Part shown: one piece after another, positions 25,596 to 39,859 of the stretch
Numbering within the stretch: the stretch's first letter is position 1
Layout of the letters: every line of letters begins with the position of its first letter
NCBI GenBank assembly: GCA_037441185.1
Contig: JBBISP010000005.1
Coordinates: 5,889 to 69,888 of the forward strand
Length of the DNA: 64,000 nucleotides
Reading direction: 5' to 3'
From: Nitrospirota bacterium
Lineage (GTDB): Bacteria; Nitrospirota; Thermodesulfovibrionia; Thermodesulfovibrionales; Dissulfurispiraceae
Notes under the pieces: generated by a model
What the model was told of the DNA's origin: nothing
Databases searched by the model: none
What the model saw: the letters and a program-made list of their open reading frames with translations, nothing else
Made by a program: the position numbers and the translations under genes

Positions 25596-26468
25596 TTAAG
25601 CCTGATAAAGAGTCTTTTCCTGAATATATGCCTGCTTGAACTTCTCCACTATTTCTGATAACTGTTCATCTGTTATCATTAGAACCTCTTTACAGATCGG
25701 ATTTATAGATGCAATAAGCGGCATAGGTCCTCTATATCCGACTCCGAGCCTGACACATATTGTATCTGACATGGCTATTGTGCAACACAACATCCTCCTA
25801 TCCGATGACAATTCTGCGATGTCGTCATAGTCATGGAAGTGATGTCTTTTTATTGAATCGCATAGATTTTCAGAGAATCCCCATTTTTCAGCAAACAGGT
25901 TCCCAACCTCTGCATGCCCAAATCCAAAAATCTCTTTCTCTATATCAGAAAATCTTACCCTCTCATTATAAACCTTTTCCATTAACATCAAAAACCTCTC
26001 AGGCTGACTGTTATTCATTATGGTCTTGCCAATATCATGCAAAAGTCCTGCCACCATCGCTTCCTCTGCTTCAGGAAATCTTATCTCTTTAGCTATAATG
26101 CCGGCAGCAATCGAAACCCCAATGCTGTGTTCCCAAAGCTTTTGCTCCAGAATTCCAAATCTCTTATACACTGTCTTTGCAGATATGGCAAGGGCAAGAT
26201 TTTTAACGGCATCAAGTCCCATTATGACTATAGCATCTGATATAGTGTCAACATTCCGTCGCAGGCCATAATATGCAGAATTCGCAAGTCGCAATATATT
26301 TGACGCCATGGATTGATCCGCCATTATCACATCCTGAAGTGCATCTATCTCTACATTTGCTTTGTTGACAAGACTGACTATCTTAACAGCCACCATTGGC
26401 ATCGGAGGTATTTCACAAGTCATTAAAATAGATTCCTTTATGTTATCCATTTGACAGTAATCCCCCAT
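25596..26468 (-). CDS. HDOD domain protein (copy 1)
   Basis: ILRLANSAYYGLRRNVDTISDAIVIMGLDAVKNLAL and GLLHDIGK are HDOD hallmarks. The start could instead be the ATG at 26450. Confidence 0.85.
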   Translation of the reverse strand: MGDYCQMDNIKESILMTCEIPPMPMVAVKIVSLVNKANVEIDALQDVIMADQSMASNILRLANSAYYGLRRNVDTISDAIVIMGLDAVKNLALAISAKTVYKRFGILEQKLWEHSIGVSIAAGIIAKEIRFPEAEEAMVAGLLHDIGKTIMNNSQPERFLMLMEKVYNERVRFSDIEKEIFGFGHAEVGNLFAEKWGFSENLCDSIKRHHFHDYDDIAELSSDRRMLCCTIAMSDTICVRLGVGYRGPMPLIASINPICKEVLMITDEQLSEIVEKFKQAYIQEKTLYQA

Positions 26469-26478
26469 GTTACTTGAA

Positions 26479-27303
26479 TTATGTGAAAAATCTTTCTATT
26501 TCTCGCCTTAATCTACCTAATTTTTCTCCTATAGACTGCAGTTCATCCTCACCAAGCGAAAGTTCAAGAAGTATGGCATCATGCTCCTCGGTCCATATGC
26601 CGTCGTCTTCTATTCTTGGACTGAATCGCCTGGACAATGCCTCTGCAATCGCAACAATAGAGACCCCGAGTTTATTACCGCTCGTCTTTGACGGCTGGTG
26701 ATGATGTCTTATAGCCAAAACAATATCATCAGGCATTCTTACATGCTCAGCATATAATGAGCCGACTTCAGCATGAGTGCAGCCGAACATCTCTATCTCC
26801 TTATCAAAAATATCATCTGATACCCCTATCTCAAAAAATTTATCATGATCTTTCCTATATAAGATAACTCTGCCGATATCATGCAGCAGTCCGCATAGAA
26901 AGATCTCAGAAGGCGCAGCCATAGATACAGCATCTGATATTGCAGCCGCTATATATGCAACCTCATATCCATGAATCCAAAGATTCTTTACCTTAAATGA
27001 AGTGTGTGCTGGAAATATATCCATTACCGCCATTGCTAAAGCTATAGACTTTATATTGTTATACCCTAAAAACAATACAGCATGCTTTATACTCTTAACA
27101 TTTCCTGAATGGCCGAACATCGCAGAGTTTGCAAGTATTATGACTCTTTCAGCCAATGCCTGATCATGCGATATGAGATTGTAGAGTTCCTGTGGGGAAG
27201 AGTTCTCATTCCTCGTTATTGCAAGTATTCTGCTCATTAGCGAAGGAATTGTATATGACTTATTCAGCCCCTTAACAAATTCCTTTATATCATTTTTATC
27301 CAT
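26479..27303 (-). CDS. HDOD domain protein (copy 2)
   Basis: VIILANSAMFGHSGNVKSIKHAVLFLGYNNIKSIAL and GLLHDIGR. Paralog of the adjacent gene. Confidence 0.85.
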   Translation of the reverse strand: MDKNDIKEFVKGLNKSYTIPSLMSRILAITRNENSSPQELYNLISHDQALAERVIILANSAMFGHSGNVKSIKHAVLFLGYNNIKSIALAMAVMDIFPAHTSFKVKNLWIHGYEVAYIAAAISDAVSMAAPSEIFLCGLLHDIGRVILYRKDHDKFFEIGVSDDIFDKEIEMFGCTHAEVGSLYAEHVRMPDDIVLAIRHHHQPSKTSGNKLGVSIVAIAEALSRRFSPRIEDDGIWTEEHDAILLELSLGEDELQSIGEKLGRLRREIERFFT

Positions 27304-27319
27304 ATCTATACCTTTATTC

Positions 27320-28906
27320 TTAATGCCTAAACCAGCTTATGAGCTTCTGTATCTCTGAGGCCAATTTTGAGAGATCAGCGGCTGCATGGTTAAGTTGTGA
27401 ACTTGCATCCGAAGACATCTTTGTGATTGCAGAGACATTATTCATGCTCTGTGATACCTCTTCTGCAGCGGCTGACTGTTGTTCTGCTGCAACAGCTATC
27501 CTCTGAACCATGTCAACAGCCTTTTCAGATGCCTCCACTATAGTGTTGAGGGCTTCTTTTGCCTCCTCTGCAAGTTTTACTCCGCCCTGAACCTTTGAGA
27601 CGCCTATGTTCATTGAGCTCACAGACCTCTCGGTCTCTGCCTGTATCTTCTTTATCATCTCTGCAATCTCTCTTGTAGCTTTGCTGCTCCTTTCTGCAAG
27701 CTTTCTTACCTCATCAGCAACAACTGCAAATCCTCTTCCCTGCTCTCCAGCCCTCGCTGCCTCAATAGCTGCATTTAAGGCAAGAAGGTTTGTCTGATCT
27801 GCAATATCATCTATTACTCTTATAATATTTCCTATCTCATTTGAACCCTTTCCCAGCTCTTCAATAGTAGATGCTGTCTCTTTTATTGTCTCAGCAATCT
27901 CAACCATGCTGTTTACAGTATTTTCAACAGACTTCTTTCCTTTAAGCGCTATACTTGAAGCGTCTTTTGATGCAGATACTGCATTAGATGCGTTCTTTGC
28001 TACATCCATTACTGTCTGTGATATCTCTGTCATCGCAGATGCAACCTGCTCTATCTGGAGTGACTGCTCATGAGAGTTCTTGTTCAAATCATTTGCTGTT
28101 GCTGAGAATTCCTCTGAGGCTGACGCCATCTGATAGGTTGTTGAGGATAGGCGCTGAATAGTCTGTTTCAGATTTCCTGTCATCTCATTCATATTCGCTC
28201 CCAGAAGACCTATCTCATCCTTTGATGAAACCTCCATGTTTAAAGTAAGGTCTCCTCTTGAGATGAGACCTATAGAATCCATAAAATTAGATAGAGGTTT
28301 TAACAACTTATTTTTGCTTACAAATACACTGCCAATGCTCATTGCACATAATATGATCAGAAAAGATATTATAAATATATTCATCTTTGAGGTCTCGGCA
28401 TCCATTATTTCATAACCAGTTTTTATCTCTTTCTTTAGATAGTCATTGTATTGATCAAAAAGTCCCTTTATCTCAAAAGCTAAAGGCTCAGTTACGGTTG
28501 CAAGAATTTCTTTTTTCTTTGCAGTATCATTTGTTTTTAAAATAGCGTCTGCGCTCTCATGAAATCTCTTATGAGGGTCTTCCATTGCCTTATGTAACCT
28601 CTGCTCTTCAGCACTTTTGGGTTTATAAGAATAATACCATTTCCCAAAATCGCATTTTGTAGGATCAGTAGTTTTTTTAAATTCCTCTCCACTATGGATA
28701 TGCTCTTTAAGTGAATCAAGCCAAAGAAGATGGTCGATGTATTTTTCTTTTAAGAAACCGCTCGCCTCAACATTCCCTGCCTGTGTTTCATCGGCTGCTG
28801 AGATCTGATTATTGGTATATAAAAAGATCCCTATTGCAATAAAAGCAATCGCACAAACAACAATGCTCTGCAAAAAAACCAATTTCTTAATTGATACATC
28901 TTTCAT
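27320..28906 (-). CDS. Methyl-accepting chemotaxis protein with a CZB-like motif in the predicted periplasmic domain
   Basis: Two TM segments, a HAMP domain and the MCP signalling domain ([38 protein letters not shown]). Between the TM segments: DHLLW-x22-CDFGKW-x21-HKRFH. Confidence 0.93.
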
Positions 28907-28918
28907 CTTTATATCCTC

Positions 28919-29386
28919 CTAATGAACTAATAAATTTGATTCAATATTTGATTGCCCTTTGTTAAAGAAAAGCTTGTCAATATCAATGAGTATTAGAAGC
29001 CTGTCATTGAGTTTTCCCATACCTTTTATGTATTCAGAGTCTATGCTGCCTGTCATTAATGGCGGCGGATCAATAGCATCGGATGATATTCTCAACACCT
29101 CAGAGACTGAATCGACTATTATGCCTGTAATAATGCCAACATCTATGACTATTATCCTTGCGTGATTATCAAGCCTATCTGAATCCAGACCAAATCTTTT
29201 TCTCAGATTTATGACAGGTATCACCTTTCCCCTCAGGTTGATTACGCCTTCTATATGCTGAGGAGAGTTTGGAACAGGGGTTATATCCACAATCCTATTT
29301 ATCTCCTGCACCTTAAGAATATCAACAGCATATTCTTCTTTTCCAAGCCTGAATGTAACAAACTGTAAAATTTCATTTAAATTCAT
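28919..29386 (-). CDS. cheW: Chemotaxis coupling protein CheW
   Basis: FRLGKEEYAVDILKVQEI...IEGVINLRGKVIPVINLRKRFGL. Preferred start is the ATG at 29386, with GGAGG 5 nt upstream. Confidence 0.92.
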   Translation of the reverse strand: MNLNEILQFVTFRLGKEEYAVDILKVQEINRIVDITPVPNSPQHIEGVINLRGKVIPVINLRKRFGLDSDRLDNHARIIVIDVGIITGIIVDSVSEVLRISSDAIDPPPLMTGSIDSEYIKGMGKLNDRLLILIDIDKLFFNKGQSNIESNLLVH

Positions 29387-29404
29387 CTTTGCCTCCATAA
29401 TCTT

Positions 29405-30496: not shown

Positions 30497-32950
30497 TTAA
30501 ACCCTAAACCATCCTGCCGTTGAATTCAATTCTGCTGCAAGTTTTGAAAGATCTACTGACGCGCGTTTTATTTCACCAATTGAATCGCCTAATTGTCTTG
30601 TTATTGCTGCAATGCTTTCCATATTGTGAGAAACATCTTCGGATGCCGTGGACTGTTCTTCGGTTGCTGCTGCAATTCTCTGCACCATGTCTGCAACCTC
30701 TCCTACATACTCAACTATCCCGTCTATTGACTTCAGAGTGCTGTTTACATGGTTAAGAACCATTCCAACAGACTCCCTTTCTTGCCTCATAAAGTTTACA
30801 GAATCTGCAACCTCTGCTTGCATTGCCTTTACTGTGTTTGAAATGTCATTCGTAGCTGAAGTTGTTCTTTCTGCAAGTTTTCTCACCTCATCGGCAACAA
30901 CCGCAAAACCCCTTCCCTGTTCTCCTGCACGGGCAGCCTCTATTGCTGCGTTCAATGCAAGAAGATTTGTCTGATCAGCTATGCCTTTTATCAAGGTTAT
31001 TATTTCATTTATCTCGCCTGATTTCTGCCCGAGGGATTCCACTTTTGCAGCAGACATATTAACCATATCTGTAAATTTCTGAAGCTCCTGAACCGTTATA
31101 TGCATAGCATTTTTGCCATTCATCGCTATCTTTTTCATCTCCTGCGCAGCCTTTGATGTATGGGAGGCGTTTTTTGCCATGTCAAGCGTTGTTTGAGACA
31201 TTTCTGTCATTGCAGTTGCTGACTGCTCTACCTGAGAAGTCTGCTGATAAGAGCCTTTCTCAAGAGCATCAGCAGTGGCTGACAGCTCCTCTGAACTGCT
31301 TGCAAGTGTGCTGGTAGATGTTTTTATTTTTCCGACAATTCCTCTGAGATTGTCTATCATCTTACACATTGATTGTTGAACCAGTCCTATTTCATCCTTC
31401 TTTTGTTCATTCTTAGAACATGTAAGGGTGCCTTCAGCAATCTGCTCAGATTCCCAGATGAGTTCATTTAAGGGTTTTGAAACAGAACGATAAATCCATG
31501 TGCCGAAGGCGATGCCAAAGACAACAGCGCCTATGCTTATGCCAATAATAAGTATTGTGCTGAATCTCACCATTCTGTTCACCTTTCCTATAGCCTTTTC
31601 CTGCTCGCCTTGAGCGGAAGTAACAGTCTGTTTTCCCATTTCAGCCTGCCTTATAACTATTCCCCTCAATCTATCGGTAGCTTGCAGAGCCTTTTCTTTC
31701 ATATCAATCTGATGGCGGATCTTAGCAATTATTCCGTCTTTTGCAAATAACAGACTCCTCACAGAAGACAAGGCAATTTGTACGCTTTGAAGCATCTTAA
31801 TCTCTTCCTTTGCATCTAATTTTGAGAGCATCCTCTCAAGGCCTTTACTTACGACATCGATTTTTTCATATATTCTTTTAATATCATTATCAATAAGGTC
31901 AACCTCTTTTAATAAATTAACCGTAAACAACCGTGCAGCCAGCCCTTCTATGGATAACCCGAGTGAGACGAGTTCAGAATTTCCAGATAACACATTTATT
32001 GATATATTAGCCTGAGTAAAAACATCTCTTTGTTTATTTGTTTCAATGCTATACTTATCACCGGCAGTCATAACTTCTTGTTCTGTAATTAAAAGAACCG
32101 ATGCAAGCTTTTCGTTTATTTCTTTATTTAATAATTCATGGCGATTTTTAGACTCTTCGTTTGGTTCTCCAATCATTGCGGTTTGGACCTTTACAAGTTC
32201 ATCAATCCTTTCTCCAAGCATTTTAATATCAGAGTATAGGTTTTTGGACTCCTTCAAATATTCGCTCTGAAGAGCCTTATTTACAATAGCATTAATTTTG
32301 CCTCTGGCAATTATTAATGTCTTTTTATCCTGCGCTTTTTGTATCTCAAAAATAGCTAACTGAATATCTTTAAACGTTGCTTTTAACATCTCAATATTTC
32401 TCAGTTTTGATGAAATACCCCTTGTCTCTTCTAATGATGTAACAAATAAGGCAGAACGATTAAGCTGAAGCCCCTTTATCTTTGCATCAAGTCCTTTTAA
32501 TTTATTTGATACATCTTTTAGTCTTTGAATGATTTCCGTATTTGCTGAGGCTGCTTCTTGTTCAGCATTTAATCTCCCTTCTGTTATATGAAAAAGTTCC
32601 TTAGCTATACGGCTCATTTCACTATAGACCTCCATATTTACGCCTCCAGAGAGCGCCTCTAAGACATCCTGAGATGCCTTAACCTCTGAAAGTGAATTTT
32701 CAGCCTCTGCACGGTATGTCTTGTATTCATCACTGCTGTTTGATGCAGATACCTTTATAAGGTCTGAGGTCATGCCCTGAATTGCTCGCTGAAACTCAAC
32801 AGTTCTCATCTGAAAAGGGGTGCTCTTCTCTGTAAGATGAAAAAGTTTGTTTTTCACAGAACCCATGCCTATCACACTTGTAACAGCAACAGCGCTAATG
32901 ATTGCGAGCACTGCAATTACATTCCATGTGAGTTTAGCTTTAATTGTCAT
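30497..32950 (-). CDS. Methyl-accepting chemotaxis protein with a very large (~430 aa) helical extracytoplasmic domain
   Basis: TM segments near aa 10-32 and 463-487, a HAMP domain, and the same conserved signalling hairpin as the other MCP. Confidence 0.93.
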   Translation of the reverse strand: MTIKAKLTWNVIAVLAIISAVAVTSVIGMGSVKNKLFHLTEKSTPFQMRTVEFQRAIQGMTSDLIKVSASNSSDEYKTYRAEAENSLSEVKASQDVLEALSGGVNMEVYSEMSRIAKELFHITEGRLNAEQEAASANTEIIQRLKDVSNKLKGLDAKIKGLQLNRSALFVTSLEETRGISSKLRNIEMLKATFKDIQLAIFEIQKAQDKKTLIIARGKINAIVNKALQSEYLKESKNLYSDIKMLGERIDELVKVQTAMIGEPNEESKNRHELLNKEINEKLASVLLITEQEVMTAGDKYSIETNKQRDVFTQANISINVLSGNSELVSLGLSIEGLAARLFTVNLLKEVDLIDNDIKRIYEKIDVVSKGLERMLSKLDAKEEIKMLQSVQIALSSVRSLLFAKDGIIAKIRHQIDMKEKALQATDRLRGIVIRQAEMGKQTVTSAQGEQEKAIGKVNRMVRFSTILIIGISIGAVVFGIAFGTWIYRSVSKPLNELIWESEQIAEGTLTCSKNEQKKDEIGLVQQSMCKMIDNLRGIVGKIKTSTSTLASSSEELSATADALEKGSYQQTSQVEQSATAMTEMSQTTLDMAKNASHTSKAAQEMKKIAMNGKNAMHITVQELQKFTDMVNMSAAKVESLGQKSGEINEIITLIKGIADQTNLLALNAAIEAARAGEQGRGFAVVADEVRKLAERTTSATNDISNTVKAMQAEVADSVNFMRQERESVGMVLNHVNSTLKSIDGIVEYVGEVADMVQRIAAATEEQSTASEDVSHNMESIAAITRQLGDSIGEIKRASVDLSKLAAELNSTAGWFRV

Positions 32951-32976
32951 AATTTATCCTCAATATTTGTTAGGAT

Positions 32977-33016
32977 GTTGACCGTTATTAGCAATAATGC
33001 GCTAATAACGGTCAAC
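32977..33016 (-). terminator. Perfect 16-bp stem-loop between the SBP gene and the MCP gene (no U-tract)
   Basis: GTTGACCGTTATTAGC-AATAATGC-GCTAATAACGGTCAAC. Confidence 0.45.
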
Positions 33017-33032
33017 TATAATCATTTTTTCA

Positions 33033-33794
33033 TTACTTTATATATTTCTTTCCCTCTCCCCGCACAAAATCTATGAGCTTCTGAACTTTAGGAGACGGCT
33101 GTCCTTTTGTATATATAATCACAGGAACAGAAATCTTAGGCTCTGCTAAAGGTTTTACACTTCCGTCCATCAGACCTTCTGAAGCCAGACCAACCGCCTC
33201 TGGATTGGATTTAACTGCATTTATTACATCTGCTGCCCTGTCTACTGTAAGCACATCAGATGTATATTTTTCACCATCCATTATCTTTTTGGATACTAAT
33301 TCATTAACTCCTTTTATAAGATTGCCAAATACAACAATAATCGGCATATCTTTTCCGCCGACCTGCTTCCAGTTGTCAATCTTTCCTGTAAAAATATCTT
33401 TTGCTTGTTCTTTCGTCAGCTTTGATGCAGGGTTGTCATTGTTAACTATTATCACAATCCTGTCCTCGCTAACTACAGCGCTCTTTATAAGAGACATATC
33501 CTTTATCTCTATGTTTTCCTTCTTAACAAGTCCGCTGACCTCATCCGGGGAAAGGAAAAGAACAGCAGCATCAATAACTCCCTTTTCTAAGTCTATAATG
33601 GCAAATTTAGGACCATATGCAGTCGAGGTCAGATTAATACCTGTTGCATTTGTGAAATGACTTTTCACAGGGTTTATAGCCTTTTCAAGCGGCGGCGCCC
33701 CTCCTCCAAGTTTTATCTCTTCTGCAAAGGCGCTAATACCCAATGTTAATACAAAAACAACTACTGCCATTAAAACTAACACACACCTTTTCAT
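33033..33794 (-). CDS. Periplasmic PstS-family (PBP-like-2) substrate-binding protein
   Basis: Signal peptide and the family motif IFTGKIDNWKQVGGKDMPIIVV. No ABC permease or ATPase genes are adjacent. Confidence 0.8.
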   Translation of the reverse strand: MKRCVLVLMAVVVFVLTLGISAFAEEIKLGGGAPPLEKAINPVKSHFTNATGINLTSTAYGPKFAIIDLEKGVIDAAVLFLSPDEVSGLVKKENIEIKDMSLIKSAVVSEDRIVIIVNNDNPASKLTKEQAKDIFTGKIDNWKQVGGKDMPIIVVFGNLIKGVNELVSKKIMDGEKYTSDVLTVDRAADVINAVKSNPEAVGLASEGLMDGSVKPLAEPKISVPVIIYTKGQPSPKVQKLIDFVRGEGKKYIK

Positions 33795-33898: not shown

Positions 33899-35077
33899 TC
33901 AGAATCCGAATTCCTTTAATAAATCATCCACTCCTTCCTGAGATACCTTTTCAGGCGCTCCAATTTCTACCTTCTTTCCTTCTTCTATCTTCACACCAAA
34001 GGTTGCTATCATTTTCACAAGCTCATTTTCCATGTCTCCGACAAGCTTAATTACCCTCTTTATAGCCTGCCCTGTAATGTCTTGAAAAGACTGAGCAGTA
34101 AGTATTTGGGTTAAATCATCCTCAAGGCTATTCTTAAAATTCTTTAAATAGTTCACAGATTCTTCAGGTTCTTTAAGGTTTTTTATATGTGCATTAAGTT
34201 CATCCATAGTCAGAATGTATTTCTCGACTATGCCCATTGTCTTGTTGGCTGCTTCCTCTGTCTTATCAATAACAAACTCAAGCCTATCAATAGCGCTCGG
34301 CATGTCTGTTATCGCTATATTCTTAAGTCTGGGGTCAAGCGCCTCTTTAAAAGTCTTTATGGAGTCATGAAGCTTTCTCGTTACCTTTCCAACCTCTTTA
34401 AAAAGGTCGCTCTGTCCTTTGCCTATAATATTCTGTATGGAGATATCCGCCTTTTCATAATTTTGCGCTGCGACGGCATTCATGAAATCGACTATATCAT
34501 CAAGAAGGGCGCATCTTGGATCAGTAGAGCTTATGCCCCTCTTTTCAAAAAAGTCCTTTGCATCCATGACTTCTTTGACAATCACACTGCCGCCCATGCC
34601 TTCTGCCTTCTTTACCACCTCGACCTTATCCCCAACTTCATTGACTTCAAATATCTCATCTTCAAAAATGCTCATGTTTTCTATAGGGATAAGCTTCTTT
34701 GTATCAAGGAGAACAACAAGCTTATCATCAACCCTTGCAATGCCTGAGACTATATCAGAGGCATTAAAGTAAGCTGGCGGCTCTATCTTCGATTCCTCTA
34801 TTGTGATAACGCCTGTTATGCTGTCAACAAGAACTCCGAATTTGACACTGCCGTTTGTAACAACAATAATCTTCTCCCCTATTGTCTCTCCATTTAGACC
34901 GATAAGTTTTCTGATATCAACAACAGGTATTACCCTTCCTCTCAGATTAGCTATGCCTTCTATGTAATAAGGAGACTGAGGCAGTTTTGTAAGAGTCGGC
35001 ATATTAATAATCTCTTGAACCTTTAGTATGGGAATCGTATATTCATTGTTATCAACCATAAAGCCAATGTGCTGCAT
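33899..35077 (-). CDS. CheW-domain / CheZ phosphatase fusion protein
   Basis: The N-terminal ~140 aa are paralogous to CheW ([12 protein letters not shown]...[23 protein letters not shown]). The C-terminal ~200 aa carry the CheZ active-site helix [21 protein letters not shown] and the CheY-binding tail [11 protein letters not shown]. Start at 35077 with a GGAGG RBS. Confidence 0.85.
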   Translation of the reverse strand: [392 protein letters not shown]

Positions 35078-35096
35078 ATATCCTCCGTCTGTTTTC

Positions 35097-36809
35097 TTAT
35101 TTGCTTGTCCTAAATGTGCTTCTTGAAAGCACTGCAAGGTCTAAAATTAAGACAACCTTTCCATCGCCAGTGATTGTTGCGCCCATGATGCCGCATTCTT
35201 CAGAATCAATGCCGTTAAGTGTTTTAATCACAATTTCTTCCTGACCTAAAAGTTCATCAACAGATATGCAGAACCTCCTGTCGCCAACTGTAGTCACAAG
35301 AACATAAATGTTATCTCTGTCAACCTCAGATGTTCCTCTAACTCCGAGAAACTCTGACATCTGGAAAAGGGGCATAACACTGCCGCGCACAGTTAATGCC
35401 ATCTGACCTGTCACATCTTTTATATCGCTTTTTTTAATCTTGATCGTCTCTTCTATCATTGTTTGTGGAATGGCATAAATTTCATCGCCTATCTTTACCA
35501 TCATGGCATAAATTATTGCGAGGGTAAGAGGCAGACTTATCTTAAATGTGCTTCCAATATCCTTTTTAGTTATTACTTCTACATATCCGTTCAGTTTTGA
35601 TACATTTGTTTTAACAACATCCATTCCGACTCCGCGGCCGCTTAGTTCTGTTGAAACATCTTTTGTGGAAAATCCAGGCAAAAATATAAGATTTATTGCA
35701 GCCTCATCAGACATCCTCTGCGCCTCTTCCTCTGTTATCAAACATTTTGACAACGCCTTTTTCTTGACAGACTCAACATCAATGCCCTTTCCATCATCAG
35801 AGACCTCTATGACAATCTGTGTGCCTTTCTGGTATGCGCTTAAGATTATTCTCCCATTCTTGGGCTTGCCTTTGATCTGCCGTTCTTCAGAGAATTCTAT
35901 GGCATGATCTATAGAATTTCTTATAATATGAACAAGGGGGTCTCCTATGCTTTCTATAACAGTTTTATCAACCTCTGTGTCTTCTCCGAATATCTCAAGA
36001 TCTATATCCTTGCCCAAATTCCTTGACATATCCCTTACCATCCTCGGAAACTTGCTGAAAACCTTCTGAATTGGCTGCATCCTCATCTTCATCACAGCAA
36101 GCTGTAAATCAGATGTAACCCTGTCGAAAAATCCTGTTGTCTCAAGAAGGCTCTCAACATGACTGTCTCCAGAATATTTAAGTTCAAGTTTTGAGGCAAG
36201 GTTTAAAAGCCTGTTTCTGACAAGAACTATTTCTCCAGCAAGATCCATTACCTTATCTATCCTCGATACATCAACCCTAAGTGTCGATACTACTTCCTTG
36301 TCCTTTGTTATCTGCTCAGCCACAGGTTGAGGTTCAGGTTTAGGTTGAGAAACAGCAGATTCTTTTTTCTTTTCCTCAGCCGCAACCTTAACCTCAACAT
36401 CTTCTTTCTCCTCTCCTGCTACTGCCAATTTCAGAGAATAATCAAGCTCTCTTAAAATGTCCGATATATCCAGTTCTATGCCGTCTTTAAGTTTGATATG
36501 ATGTATTAAAAGCCTTAAGGTATCCACACTTTTAAGAATCGCATCCATTAATTCCCGTGAAAGAGCAACTTCACCATCACGGAGCCTCTTCATAATGCTC
36601 TCTGCCCTGTGAGCAATATCAACTATCTGCTGAAAGCCCAGAAAGCCTGCAGCTCCTTTAAGAGTATGCATTCCTCGAAATATCTCGTTTAAAATATTCT
36701 TATCATATCCCTTTGTCTCGAGTTCGACAAACATTGGGTCTATTTTTTCGAGTGACTCTTCTGCCTCAGTAATAAATTCTGATATTATCTCTTCCATTTC
36801 ATCAGCCAT
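35097..36809 (-). CDS. cheA: Chemotaxis histidine kinase CheA (P1-P3-P4-P5, apparently no P2 domain)
   Basis: Hpt MHTLKGAAGFLG, a low-complexity linker, the dimerisation region LRVDVSRIDKVMDLAGEIV, HATPase boxes, and a C-terminal CheW-like domain. 570 aa. Confidence 0.95.
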   Translation of the reverse strand: MADEMEEIISEFITEAEESLEKIDPMFVELETKGYDKNILNEIFRGMHTLKGAAGFLGFQQIVDIAHRAESIMKRLRDGEVALSRELMDAILKSVDTLRLLIHHIKLKDGIELDISDILRELDYSLKLAVAGEEKEDVEVKVAAEEKKKESAVSQPKPEPQPVAEQITKDKEVVSTLRVDVSRIDKVMDLAGEIVLVRNRLLNLASKLELKYSGDSHVESLLETTGFFDRVTSDLQLAVMKMRMQPIQKVFSKFPRMVRDMSRNLGKDIDLEIFGEDTEVDKTVIESIGDPLVHIIRNSIDHAIEFSEERQIKGKPKNGRIILSAYQKGTQIVIEVSDDGKGIDVESVKKKALSKCLITEEEAQRMSDEAAINLIFLPGFSTKDVSTELSGRGVGMDVVKTNVSKLNGYVEVITKKDIGSTFKISLPLTLAIIYAMMVKIGDEIYAIPQTMIEETIKIKKSDIKDVTGQMALTVRGSVMPLFQMSEFLGVRGTSEVDRDNIYVLVTTVGDRRFCISVDELLGQEEIVIKTLNGIDSEECGIMGATITGDGKVVLILDLAVLSRSTFRTSK

Positions 36810-36819
36810 TTTATGCCCC

Positions 36820-37224
36820 TTAATTCGCCTTTAATGCAGGTTTTTTTTCAGCTATTTTGCTGAGTTTTTCCATTAATACCTCAGCAGTGAATGGTTTAAC
36901 AATATAATTATCAACACCAGACTTTATGGCCTCTATAACTTTATCCTTTTCAGACTCTGCTGTCACCATAAGAAATGGGATATCTTTAAGCGGCTCTGGC
37001 TCCTGCCTGATATTTCTAAGAAGGTCTATACCCTCCATATTAGGCATGTTCCAGTCAGATACAACGAGCCCGTATTTGCCGCTCTTAAGTTTGTTGAGCG
37101 CCTGCACGCCATCCTCAGCCTCTTCTATATTTTCAAAGCCGATTTGTTTCAAAAGATTCTTAACTATCCTTCTCATTGTAGGAAAGTCGTCCACTACGAG
37201 CACTATGATCTCAAAGTTAAACAT
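36820..37224 (-). CDS. cheY: Chemotaxis response regulator CheY
   Basis: [18 protein letters not shown]...[16 protein letters not shown]...MVTAE...YIVKPFTA is the classical CheY signature. Confidence 0.93.
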
Positions 37225-37603
37225 TAGCCTTACCTCCTTTAAACATTGTATTTAATATTTTTTTAATGCTGTTATTTATCTGGTCAGCGCTTACAGGCTT
37301 GACTAAATAATCATTGGCGCCTGCTTCAAGCGCCCTTGTTTTCTCATCAGCATCAGCTTCTGTAGTGACCATAAGAATAGGTATATGTGAACCATAATCA
37401 GCCCTTAGTCTTTTAATTAGTTCAAGTCCATCCATATAAGGCATATTTAAATCAGTTACAATCATATTGACAGGAATTGTTGCAAGTTTTTCGATGGCAT
37501 CAAGTCCGTTTTCAGCAAAGAACACATCAAATCCCCTTGACCTGAGGGATAGCCCCATAAGCTTTCTTGTTGTGGGACAATCATCAACAATTAATATCTT
37601 CAT
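37217..37603 (-). CDS. Second single-domain CheY-like response regulator
   Basis: [12 protein letters not shown]...[15 protein letters not shown]...YLVKP. Preferred start is the ATG at 37603, after the cheR TGA. Confidence 0.88.
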
Positions 37604-37608
37604 ACTAT

Positions 37609-38424
37609 TCACCTTTTTTGATAAACTACTACATTATTTATTACGACCGGCATGAATGCCCTTGTAACATTATGCAGACTCTCTGCTGTGCCGATAAACA
37701 AAAAACCGCCCGGCTTAATGCTGTCATAAAGATTAGAAACGACCTTCTGCTTTGCCTTTTCGTCAAAGTAAATAAGAACATTGCGGCAGAAGACCACATC
37801 CATTCCTTTAATGTTTTTCATGCCTTTTTCATCAATCAGATTGATATTTTTGAATTGAACATAGTTTTTAATAACGTTTCCCAGAACAAAAGACTGTCCG
37901 TTATTATTAAAATATTTCTTGAGATAATTCTCCGGAATATTTCTTACGGAATAAGATGTATAAACCGCTTTATTTGCAGACTCCAAAGCTTTGCTGCTGA
38001 TATCAGAAGCCAGCATCTCTGCCTTCAATGAGCTTAATCTTTCCTTAAACATCATAGCAATGGTATAGGGTTCCTCCCCTGTCGAACAGGCAGCAGACCA
38101 TATCTTTATAGTTTTAGTTTTGTTTTGCTCTGCAACCCTTCCGGCCACCTCATTAATCAACACATCCAACTGCTGAGGCTCTCTGAAAAAAAAGGTCTCA
38201 TTTGTTGTAATAGAATCAAAGAGCATTGCAAGTTCATTATTACAGCGGCCATTCATCACAAAATAAAGATAATCATCAAAACCCTTGAGCCCTCTATCTT
38301 TAATTCTTTTAATAAGCCTGTTTTCGAGGAGATACTTTTTTGTGTCGGGTATAAAAATACCGCACCTTTCATATATAAAATCCCTTAACTGTCTAAATAT
38401 TTCATCTTGAAGGTAGATATTCAT
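37609..38424 (-). CDS. cheR: Chemotaxis methyltransferase CheR
   Basis: TNETFFFREPQQLDVL, IWSAACSTGEEPYTIAM and VFCRNVLIYFD. Confidence 0.93.
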   Translation of the reverse strand: MNIYLQDEIFRQLRDFIYERCGIFIPDTKKYLLENRLIKRIKDRGLKGFDDYLYFVMNGRCNNELAMLFDSITTNETFFFREPQQLDVLINEVAGRVAEQNKTKTIKIWSAACSTGEEPYTIAMMFKERLSSLKAEMLASDISSKALESANKAVYTSYSVRNIPENYLKKYFNNNGQSFVLGNVIKNYVQFKNINLIDEKGMKNIKGMDVVFCRNVLIYFDEKAKQKVVSNLYDSIKPGGFLFIGTAESLHNVTRAFMPVVINNVVVYQKR

Positions 38425-38425
38425 A

Positions 38426-39859
38426 TCACATTTTCTGCAGCCATCCGGCTATTTCTTTTATATTACTGTCGAAATTTTCTATCTGTGACAAAAACCTTTC
38501 CGAATCAAGCATAAAAAGCGCCTTTACTGCCTCCTCTATCACATCCTCATATTTTTCTTGCGCCAGGAGTTTTGCTATAGGCTCAAATGCAGTCTTATCC
38601 CTAATCCTACCGAGTGCAGATACAGTTATTCTTCTTATATGTCCATCGTAGTCGTTGAGGGCGTCGATTAAGATCGGGGTTGTATTTTTATCTCGTATTT
38701 CACATAGCGCCTTTATGCTCGCCCTTCGAATATCTCTAATGTCTGCTTTAAGAAGATTTATAAGATGAGGGATCGCTTTTTTGCACTTCAGGTCCCCAAT
38801 CACATCTATAGCAATAACTTTTCCTCTAAATTTAATGGATGAATCAGCGACAATATCAATCAATTCATCAATGCAGCCAAAGCTTTTGAGCGCATCCTTC
38901 GCAGCAAAGATAATATCCTCATTTTCTAGTTCAGAAGGATCCATTGAGCCTACAATATCTACAATTGCCGAAATTGCCTTTTTCCCCTTTAATTCAGCAA
39001 TCCCTTTTAATGCAATTAGTTTCTCATTTAAGTCGCCGTTTTCGAGCATGTCCAAGAGACTCTCATAAATGCCCCATATGGATGGGGCAACTCGTAATGC
39101 AACAAGGCTTTTAACAATAACAGTCTTTTCAAAATCCTCCTTTGCTTTATCAAAACGGCTAATAAGAGCATCTGCGGCAAGTTGTGAGCCTATAGCGCCA
39201 AGCGCCTCTATTGCAGCGTGTCTTATAGCAGCAGAAGGGGCATCGAGCAGGCAGGTGATATGCCCTATTGATGATTCCTCCTTTATCATGCCTAAAGACT
39301 CTAAGGCTGAGAAGCAAACCCATTCCTCATCTTTAAGGGCATTTAATAGTTCTGGCAATGCCTCCTTATAATTAAGTATTCCCAATGCCTTTGCAGCAGA
39401 TGCCCTGACATTAGGATTAGAGTCATCTTTTAATATCGCGCACAACACCTCTGGATAACCGCACTTTTTAGTTTCACAGATAATGTCAATGGCAAATTTT
39501 CTTATATCATCATCCTTATCCATAAGAAGAGGACGAAGGAGCGGAACAGCTTCTGAGCCAATGCCTTTTAATATTATAATGGCAGTATTTCTAAGCAGTG
39601 AGTCTCCTCTTAAAAGAGGCATTACCATATAAGCTGTCATCTCTCCGCCTATGGAAATAAGAGATCTCATAGCAGCATCCTGCACGCCAAAATCGCTATC
39701 GTTTAAGGCATTGATCAAAGGATATATAGCCCTCTCATCCCCTTTTGATAATAATTCTGTGGCTAAACGCCTTTTTGACGAATCAGCATGTCTGAGGTCT
39801 GCTATCAATTTTGATATGGCTTTTGCATTAAGCATTTTATTTTTATTTATATTCGGCAT
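38426..39859 (-). CDS. HEAT-repeat (PBS-lyase-like) protein embedded in the che operon
   Basis: At least seven repeats of the D.(D/N)..(V/I)R..A..ALG.I type, for example DSNPNVRASAAKALGIL and DGHIRRITVSALGRIRD. Confidence 0.8.
   Translation of the reverse strand: MPNINKNKMLNAKAISKLIADLRHADSSKRRLATELLSKGDERAIYPLINALNDSDFGVQDAAMRSLISIGGEMTAYMVMPLLRGDSLLRNTAIIILKGIGSEAVPLLRPLLMDKDDDIRKFAIDIICETKKCGYPEVLCAILKDDSNPNVRASAAKALGILNYKEALPELLNALKDEEWVCFSALESLGMIKEESSIGHITCLLDAPSAAIRHAAIEALGAIGSQLAADALISRFDKAKEDFEKTVIVKSLVALRVAPSIWGIYESLLDMLENGDLNEKLIALKGIAELKGKKAISAIVDIVGSMDPSELENEDIIFAAKDALKSFGCIDELIDIVADSSIKFRGKVIAIDVIGDLKCKKAIPHLINLLKADIRDIRRASIKALCEIRDKNTTPILIDALNDYDGHIRRITVSALGRIRDKTAFEPIAKLLAQEKYEDVIEEAVKALFMLDSERFLSQIENFDSNIKEIAGWLQKM

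Follow-up and report, generated by a model that had tools for sequence, protein, structure and literature searches.

This article deals with a gene that joins, in one open reading frame, the chemotaxis adaptor CheW and CheZ, the phosphatase that acts on phosphorylated CheY (CheY-P). The gene lies on the minus strand at positions 33899..35077 of a 64,000-nucleotide (nt) stretch of DNA from a Nitrospirota bacterium (Dissulfurispiraceae; GenBank assembly GCA_037441185.1, contig JBBISP010000005.1), which as a whole we call the window. An earlier reading made from the letters alone (the sequence-only reading) had proposed that the fusion builds the phosphatase into the receptor array. We consider it probable that the product is a genuine bifunctional protein, in which CheW docks at the array and CheY-P is dephosphorylated at the site of its production.

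Closest described systems

The first point of comparison is Escherichia coli CheZ, in which a D(D/E)WF motif at the hairpin tip, a mark of the enteric subfamily and not of CheZ at large, is needed for localization that depends on CheA-short (PMC7750401). The fusion resembles this protein in having catalytic Asp and Gln residues on a helical hairpin and a C-terminal CheY-binding peptide, and the presumed outcome, a phosphatase at the array, is the same. The differences lie in the way this is reached and in the build of the protein. Localization of the fusion would be covalent, via the N-terminal CheW; its hairpin is about 21 amino acids (aa) shorter than that of E. coli CheZ as judged by BLASTP, the D(D/E)WF motif is lacking (0 of 24 and 0 of 42 aligned family sequences), and there is an extra N-terminal helical pair.

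A second comparison is with the non-enteric (alpha- and deltaproteobacterial) CheZ proteins, for example that of Azorhizobium caulinodans, which have a longer N-terminal helical region, a bundle about 25 residues shorter, and a DxxxQ motif, without D(D/E)WF (PMC7750401). The CheZ module of the fusion shares the long N-terminus, a predicted short bundle, the DxxxQ motif, the conserved C-terminus, and the absence of D(D/E)WF. However, proteins of the Azorhizobium type stand alone, and their N-terminal or bundle determinants bring them to the pole without CheA, whereas the fusion carries CheW in front. Helicobacter pylori CheZ, too, is a remote orthologue localized otherwise than by CheA-short (PMC7750401), but there the task falls to a separate partner protein, ChePep, and does not require the core chemotaxis proteins. 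The NCBIfam model Phos_CheZ matches the fusion weakly, at 18 bits versus 72.9 bits for the enteric model.

As an architecture, the fusion recalls CheV, which acts as an alternative adaptor within arrays. Both proteins have an N-terminal CheW-like domain followed, on a linker, by a C-terminal signaling passenger; this is a receiver in CheV and a CheZ phosphatase here, the Response_reg domain being absent from the fusion by Pfam. To judge by the precedent of CheV (array adaptor, PMC4742279), a CheW domain can probably carry a C-terminal passenger and still serve as an adaptor.

The CheW-CheZ combination has been recorded before. Vass, Branscum, Bourret and Foster (2022; bioRxiv 10.1101/2022.05.07.491035) list fusions of CheW-like domains to CheZ with other rare architectures, which they left out of their analysis (fewer than 40 sequences in RP35). 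The present fusion belongs to this class, on whose taxonomy, gene context, residues, and function the paper is silent. That CheZ occurs in Nitrospirae is stated in PMC12887009, which cites Lertsethtakarn & Ottemann 2010. Public names are 'protein phosphatase CheZ' (NCBI), 'chemotaxis signal transduction protein/... CheZ' (JGI), and 'CheW-like domain-containing protein'. We found no experimental or dedicated computational characterization of CheW-CheZ in the searchable literature. The sequence-only reading, too, was aware of none; yet the fusion is not unseen, as it is listed in databases and by Vass et al. As far as the searchable literature shows, the architecture is catalogued but uncharacterized.

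The fusion gene and its product

The gene, its translation signal, and the parts of its product are the following.

33899..35077, minus strand: gene fusing cheW to cheZ and encoding 392 aa, with its stop codon at 33899-33901; open reading frame, Pfam matches to both domains, full-length homologues 62-98% identical
35082..35086, minus strand: GGAGG Shine-Dalgarno sequence, four bases from the ATG at 35075-35077; read directly in the sequence
34673..35071, minus strand: CheW-like domain, aa 3-135; Pfam, CheW chains of the PDB, AlphaFold2 (AF2), Foldseek
34523..34672, minus strand: spacer, aa 136-185, last letters FFEK; alignments A1, A3 and A4, AF2
34412..34522, minus strand: extra helical pair, aa 186-222, ahead of the Pfam-defined CheZ region; AF2 helices 187-203 and 207-219
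33902..34411, minus strand: CheZ core, aa 223-392; Pfam CheZ, BLASTP against E. coli CheZ 16-214, PDB chain 1kmi_Z at E 1.3e-9, AF2
34067..34081, minus strand: catalytic motif D333-I-T-G-Q337 (E. coli D143...Q147); alignment
33902..33943, minus strand: predicted CheY-binding peptide at the C-terminus, aa 379-392; counterpart of E. coli CheZ 201-214 by alignment

Pfam finds both domains in the one reading frame, far above the cutoffs: CheW (PF01584) at aa 3-130 with an E value of 3.8e-34 and 117.7 bits against a gathering score of 23.5, and CheZ (PF04344), in two stretches, with 9.1e-35 and 120.8 bits against 30.7. The central claim of the sequence-only reading, that a single frame encodes a bona fide CheW and a complete CheZ, thus stands, and so do its coordinates. 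The longest form of the frame on the minus strand, 33899..35137, begins at a TTG. Translation almost certainly begins further in, with the ATG at 35075-35077, because this codon is preceded by the GGAGG site, lies 19 nt past the cheA stop codon (TAA, 35097-35099), and fits the N-termini of the homologues: all aligned full-length relatives begin within a few residues of it, with a conserved Q(H/Y)IGF. The TTG at 35137, which would give 412 aa and a 41-nt overlap with cheA, was rejected in its favor.

An internal start yielding a free 'CheZ-short' was considered as well and is not supported, as only weak AAGG or AAAGAAG stretches with poor spacing lie upstream of M161 and M172. Short CheZ-only database entries (e.g., P0140 and P0147) come from very small contigs or start in the middle of motifs, and look like fragments.

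Distribution of the family

A homologue search of 5.8 billion clustered proteins gave 770 matches at E<=1e-5. The best 120 of these 770 were examined: all carry PF01584 together with PF04344, at 62-98% identity and, bar one partial sequence, 380-409 aa in length. A second search, with a profile of divergent members, returned both domains in 120 of 120 listed matches. Taken together, the 240 listed matches make up about 190 distinct clusters at 90% identity and measure 375-426 aa, again bar one partial sequence. They stem from NCBI, JGI, ENA, and Logan assemblies and include Thermodesulfovibrio aggregans as well as the complete genome of the cultured Thermodesulfovibrio sp. 3907-1M (CP144373.1). 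When clustered at 50%, the full-length fusions fall into about 16 groups, the most distant at 32-35% identity. By source name these are Nitrospirota (Thermodesulfovibrionales, Dissulfurispiraceae), with one divergent cluster from a metagenome-assembled genome (MAG) of Thermodesulfobacteriota.

Mean identity to the window protein is 0.84 in the C-terminal peptide, 0.82 in the N-helix, 0.71 in the hairpin, 0.65 in the CheW module, and 0.56 in the spacer. The conservation of the family shows both modules to be under purifying selection.

Two oddities were met among the family members. Three proteins of 262 aa (P0123, P0489, and P0490), on separate contigs of 4-36 kb, have the first ~60 CheW residues directly joined to the CheZ helical pair, and this variant may be a decaying or remodeled fusion with half a CheW domain. 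One fusion of 70% identity (P0052) is labeled 'Alphaproteobacteria bacterium' in NCBI/UniRef. Its neighbors in sequence space are all Nitrospirota, and it is therefore probably a mis-binned or misclassified MAG contig.

The CheZ module

BLASTP aligns aa 224-392 of the fusion with residues 16-214 of E. coli CheZ at 28% identity (E 5e-15); the E. coli reference fits 1kmi_Z in its residue range. In this alignment the catalytic region falls on E. coli CheZ AQDFQDLTGQVIKR, so that D333 and Q337, on the second helix of the hairpin, correspond to D143 and Q147. The C-terminal 14 residues align with E. coli SQDQVDDLLDSLGF, the last ten of them with the CheY-binding VDDLLDSLGF. The motifs quoted by the sequence-only reading, the catalytic pair and the tail included, hence line up with E. 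coli CheZ as it had claimed. D333, Q337, Q380, and L387 are invariant in the 24 sequences of alignment A1, which takes in fusions down to 32% identity. In the 42 sequences of A3, D333 and Q337 are again invariant, and likewise Q380, V383, L387, G391, and F392.

A structure model was built with AF2 as a monomer from 42 family sequences and compared with known structures by Foldseek. In the CheZ core it gives an N-helix (223-246), a hairpin (249-299 and 305-359), a disordered linker at about 360-378, and a C-terminal helix (380-389). The 'complete CheZ' of the earlier description is thus all there: N-helix, helical hairpin with catalytic D and Q, flexible linker, and C-terminal CheY-binding helix. 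The confidence of the hairpin, in the predicted local distance difference test (pLDDT), is 70-82 for aa 271-330, 57-67 for aa 251-270, and 58-63 for aa 331-350, values that refer to a monomer model only.

Ahead of the core, the helical pair has the conserved residues F198, M199, A201, A210, D211, and I214. It is also found in CheZ-only relatives without CheW (P0151 and P0238) and is therefore part of the long N-terminus of the CheZ module. The spacer before it (aa 136-185) is kept within the Nitrospirota clade, with low-complexity sequence in its place in other fusion lineages; the AF2 model shows three low-confidence strands in it (pLDDT 48-59). We considered and rejected the idea that aa 133-224 hide a domain of the P2 type or another known kind: a profile search of PDB sequences stayed at chance level (a TALE-like repeat protein came first, with E 0.013), and Pfam gave no match to this region at E<=10.

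With these features, the C-terminal module is predicted to be a CheZ-type phosphatase with full catalytic competence for CheY-P, of the non-enteric type with a short bundle and a long N-terminus.

The CheW module

Besides Pfam, CheW chains of the PDB match the module at E values of 2.9e-22 to 1.8e-16. In its AF2 model the pLDDT is 72-90 up to aa 100, falls to 66 at aa 101-110, and is back at 83-84 in aa 111-130. Foldseek superimposes it on 2ch4_Y, the CheW of a CheA-P4P5/CheW complex, over 138 columns with a template-modeling (TM) score of 0.86, a root-mean-square deviation of 2.1 A, and an E value of 3e-13, in line with the two-subdomain beta-barrel of CheW. With the whole model as query, only CheW and CheA-P5 structures were retrieved.

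To judge whether this module could still work as an adaptor, we mapped the E. coli contact lists of a 2026 review (PMC13098124, Table 1) onto 55 fusion CheW modules, with an E. coli CheW reference that agrees with the 2ho9 alignment. The role of the E38-R62 bridge is described in PMC13098124 and in PMC3828127. The equivalents of E. coli E38, I39, R62, G57, and G99 are invariant (55 of 55). In the numbering of the fusion, E22 (E38), R46 (R62), G41 (G57), and G81 (G99) thus occur in all 55 modules and G47 (G63) in 54. At least 51 of the 55 keep the receptor-face residues I33, V36, and V108 and the CheA-P5 interface-1 residues T46, N60, G63, and P67, while L34 (46/55), P52 (44/55), and Q37 (40/55) are less strictly kept.

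In the window protein itself, I33, L34, V36, Q37, E38, I39, and V108 of the receptor face are identical to E. coli, and V105 and S106 are conservatively replaced by I and T. T46, P52, I55, N60, G63, and P67 of interface 1 are identical as well, while the contacts D107, R96, and A49 have changed to G, V, and P. Because the E38-R62 bridge and the receptor and CheA-P5 contact residues are mostly kept, the module looks like a working adaptor and not a decayed remnant.

The chemotaxis operon

The window is a flagellar and chemotaxis supercluster. On the minus strand the order is FlhF, FlhG, FliA, a HEAT-repeat protein, CheR, CheY, CheY, CheA, CheW-CheZ, then a protein like a periplasmic binding protein (PBP), a methyl-accepting chemotaxis protein (MCP) of 817 aa, CheB, CheW, an MCP containing a CZB (zinc-binding) domain, two HDOD proteins, and flgF/G/A/H. 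The genes that bear directly on the fusion are these.

35097..36809, minus strand: cheA, immediately upstream, P2-less (P1-linker-P3-P4-P5); Pfam
36820..37224, minus strand: cheY, 134 aa, the highly conserved copy; Pfam Response_reg
37217..37612, minus strand: second cheY-like receiver, 131 aa; Pfam Response_reg
28919..29398, minus strand: stand-alone cheW, paralogue of the CheW module of the fusion; Pfam, E 3e-40

We compared 14 related loci, namely ten GTDB-representative Nitrospirota loci (L001-L010) and four others (L011-L014). cheA adjoins the fusion in all 14. The order fliA-HEAT-cheR-cheY-cheY-cheA-cheWZ-(PBP-MCP)-cheB is kept in nine of L001-L010, those reaching far enough, and in L011-L013. 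The locus L014 (103..4678) belongs to a divergent lineage and reads cheWZ-cheA-cheB-motA, with the fusion upstream of cheA. This divergent fusion lineage (L014, P0137, and P0278, the last named Thermodesulfobacteriota) has about 35% identity. Its gene order suggests either an old fusion followed by rearrangement or lateral transfer between phyla.

By Pfam, the window CheA consists of Hpt, dimerization, HATPase_c, and CheW-like domains, and the CheA proteins of L011-L014 have the same set. The earlier description of it as lacking P2 is borne out: Pfam finds no P2, and the connector between P1 and P3 (~45 aa, low complexity, rich in E, K, and P) has no match at E<=10. Of the two receivers, the CheY at 36820..37224 is 66-90% identical in relatives versus 57-65% for the second, and it is presumed to be the likelier substrate of the CheZ module. 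The window also encodes FliM and a short FliN without a CheC-like extension, and no further CheY-P phosphatase was seen among its annotated open reading frames.

The stand-alone CheW and the CheW module of the fusion are paralogous, as had been noted before, with 38% identity (E 2e-28). The frame of the stand-alone gene is listed from 29398 (MEAKMNL...), and close orthologues measure 154-158 aa; translation therefore probably begins at 29386, with the second ATG, which is also what the sequence-only reading had assumed.

Proposed mechanism

We propose that the CheW module binds CheA-P5, receptor tips, or both in the array encoded by the same operon. The P2-less CheA would produce CheY-P, and dephosphorylation would follow next to this kinase: the C-terminal peptide of CheZ would capture CheY-P, and Q337 and D333 would be inserted into the active site of CheY. 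The covalent tether would take the place of localization via CheA-short, which is non-covalent in E. coli. Because CheZ presumably works as a homodimer, as in E. coli, each functional unit would have two CheW modules on spacers of ~50-90 aa, and two CheW positions could be occupied. Placement in the array lattice is suggested by the conservation of the CheW interfaces and by the precedent of CheV. As for the effect on the cell, co-localization of phosphatase and kinase is said, after Vaknin and Berg in 2004 and Rao, Kirby and Arkin in 2005, to flatten CheY-P gradients.

A number of points count against this proposal. Under the baseplate, P1 and P4 of CheA might leave too little room for a CheZ dimer, which is bulky. 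The AF2 model has a mean pLDDT of 67.8 and a predicted TM score of 0.37, so that the relative placement of its domains is meaningless. In the structure prediction, a check suggested by the sequence-only reading, the CheW module matches known CheW structures; for the helical CheZ part, Foldseek retrieved non-specific coiled-coil matches and not 1KMI (CheZ). Some contacts differ from E. coli across the fusion modules (D107 to G, R96 to I or V, A49 to P, and at interface 2 R117 to E, with E121 variable). The NCBIfam equivalog cutoffs, moreover, are missed for CheZ (NF008368, 72.9 bits versus 257; NF041271, 18.1 versus 350) and for CheW (69.4 bits versus 260). Going by these sub-cutoff scores, both modules are remote orthologues of the enteric proteins.

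Alternative readings

The fusion could be more than an accessory of the array. As the principal, and in some relatives the only operon-encoded, coupling protein it would put CheZ in stoichiometric amounts at CheW positions and would be needed for coupling receptors to the kinase. The conserved operon core, with cheA and cheWZ and no separate cheW, fits this idea. When the stand-alone CheW of the window was used as a tblastn query (E<=1e-5) against L001-L010, only the CheW module of the fusion itself was matched, and a stand-alone cheW was found neither among the open reading frames downstream of cheB in L001 and L006 nor in a 21-kb region of the complete Thermodesulfovibrio sp. 3907-1M genome. 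This evidence, however, covers the loci compared, and cheW could lie elsewhere in those genomes. A stand-alone CheW is indeed encoded just past cheB in the window and in L011/L012, and in three relatives its orthologues occur on contigs of 11995, 26092, and 92267 nt, equal in size to fusion-bearing ones; for the 92267-nt contig, co-occurrence was confirmed directly in L011/L012. In the organism of the window, fusion and stand-alone CheW are both encoded. On balance, we hold a principal coupling role to be unlikely.

Going further, the phosphatase may be a stoichiometric and signal-responsive part of the lattice, in which CheZ dimers cross-link pairs of CheW into a second layer of connectivity, the state of the receptors controls both outputs, and the CheZ peptide doubles as a docking site for CheY. 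If true, the array would act like a bifunctional kinase/phosphatase, and the tethered C-terminal peptide would be the CheY docking site that the P2-less CheA lacks. We regard this as speculative and improbable.

It is also conceivable, but in our view improbable, that the CheW module works outside the lattice. Bound to CheA-P5 or to free receptors, it would then regulate or compete, for example by capping CheA, by modulating array assembly, or by making phosphatase activity dependent on CheA binding. In favor of this, the CheA-P5 interface-1 residues are conserved, the interface-2 and ring residues differ from E. coli, and the activity of E. coli CheZ is reportedly raised in the complex with CheA-short (Wang & Matsumura 1996, as cited in PMC7750401). 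On the other hand, the receptor contacts and the E38-R62 bridge are conserved as well as the CheA contacts, which favors the full ternary interaction. Nor are the interface-2 positions diagnostic, since they differ in the ordinary CheW of the window too; indeed, most of the changed contact positions listed above are not E. coli-like in that protein either.

Finally, a frameshift, assembly, or sequencing artifact merging separate cheW and cheZ genes, which the sequence-only reading had named as something that would refute its claim, is practically excluded, because the same unbroken architecture is conserved across independent assemblies (all 240 listed matches, the 14 related loci, and the finished genome CP144373.1), the spacer itself is conserved in sequence, and inside the frame we saw neither a strong ribosome-binding site nor a strong start from which CheZ could be made separately.

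Other genes of the cluster

A number of neighboring genes deserve mention in their own right. All related loci have the HEAT-repeat protein, always placed between fliA and cheR (38426..39859, minus strand, in the window; 2520..4385 in L001, 4708..6579 in L011, and 4752..6632 in L013), and it looks like a conserved part of the che operon. The window copy has 477 aa versus 621-626 aa in relatives, with ~145 C-terminal residues missing.

Between cheWZ and cheB lies a pair made up of a PBP_like_2 periplasmic binding protein and the 817-aa MCP (30497..33794, minus strand). The window, L001-L005, and L009 have this pair, and L006, L007, L010, L011, and L013 lack it. Such a distribution may point to a chemoreceptor cassette, dependent on its binding protein, that is gained and lost.

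The second MCP, of 528 aa (27320..28906, minus strand), has its CZB domain at aa 59-123, between hydrophobic segments at ~aa 10-30 and 176-197, and therefore in the sensor position ahead of HAMP. In the corresponding MCPs of L006 (8796..10769) and L011 (13186..15147), CZB is C-terminal. A CZB domain facing the periplasm, if that is what this is, would be unusual.

The chemotaxis genes are followed by two tandem HDOD-domain proteins of 274 and 290 aa (25596..27303, minus strand). Thermodesulfovibrio sp. 3907-1M has one HDOD protein after cheB (L013, 12263..13102). These poorly understood signaling modules thus appear to be linked to the flagellar and che cluster.

Significance

For specialists in chemotaxis the fusion will be neat more than shocking, and its interest is moderate. 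The names under which it currently goes, 'protein phosphatase CheZ' and 'CheW-like domain-containing protein', hide its dual nature. It raises structural questions, namely how a hexagonal lattice deals with a dimeric passenger on CheW and how CheY is recruited by a P2-less CheA. Cultured Thermodesulfovibrio strains exist for cryo-electron tomography, and the fusion is a natural test case: the tether can be cut, or the CheW module moved, and the effect measured.

The position of the phosphatase relative to the kinase shapes both the spatial profile of CheY-P and the kinetics of the response. E. coli, Helicobacter, Azorhizobium, and the bacteria that use CheC, CheX, or FliY have found different solutions to the placement of the phosphatase. 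If the proposed reading is right, nature would offer no more direct evidence for selection on the co-localization of phosphatase and kinase than a lineage that fuses CheZ to an array adaptor.

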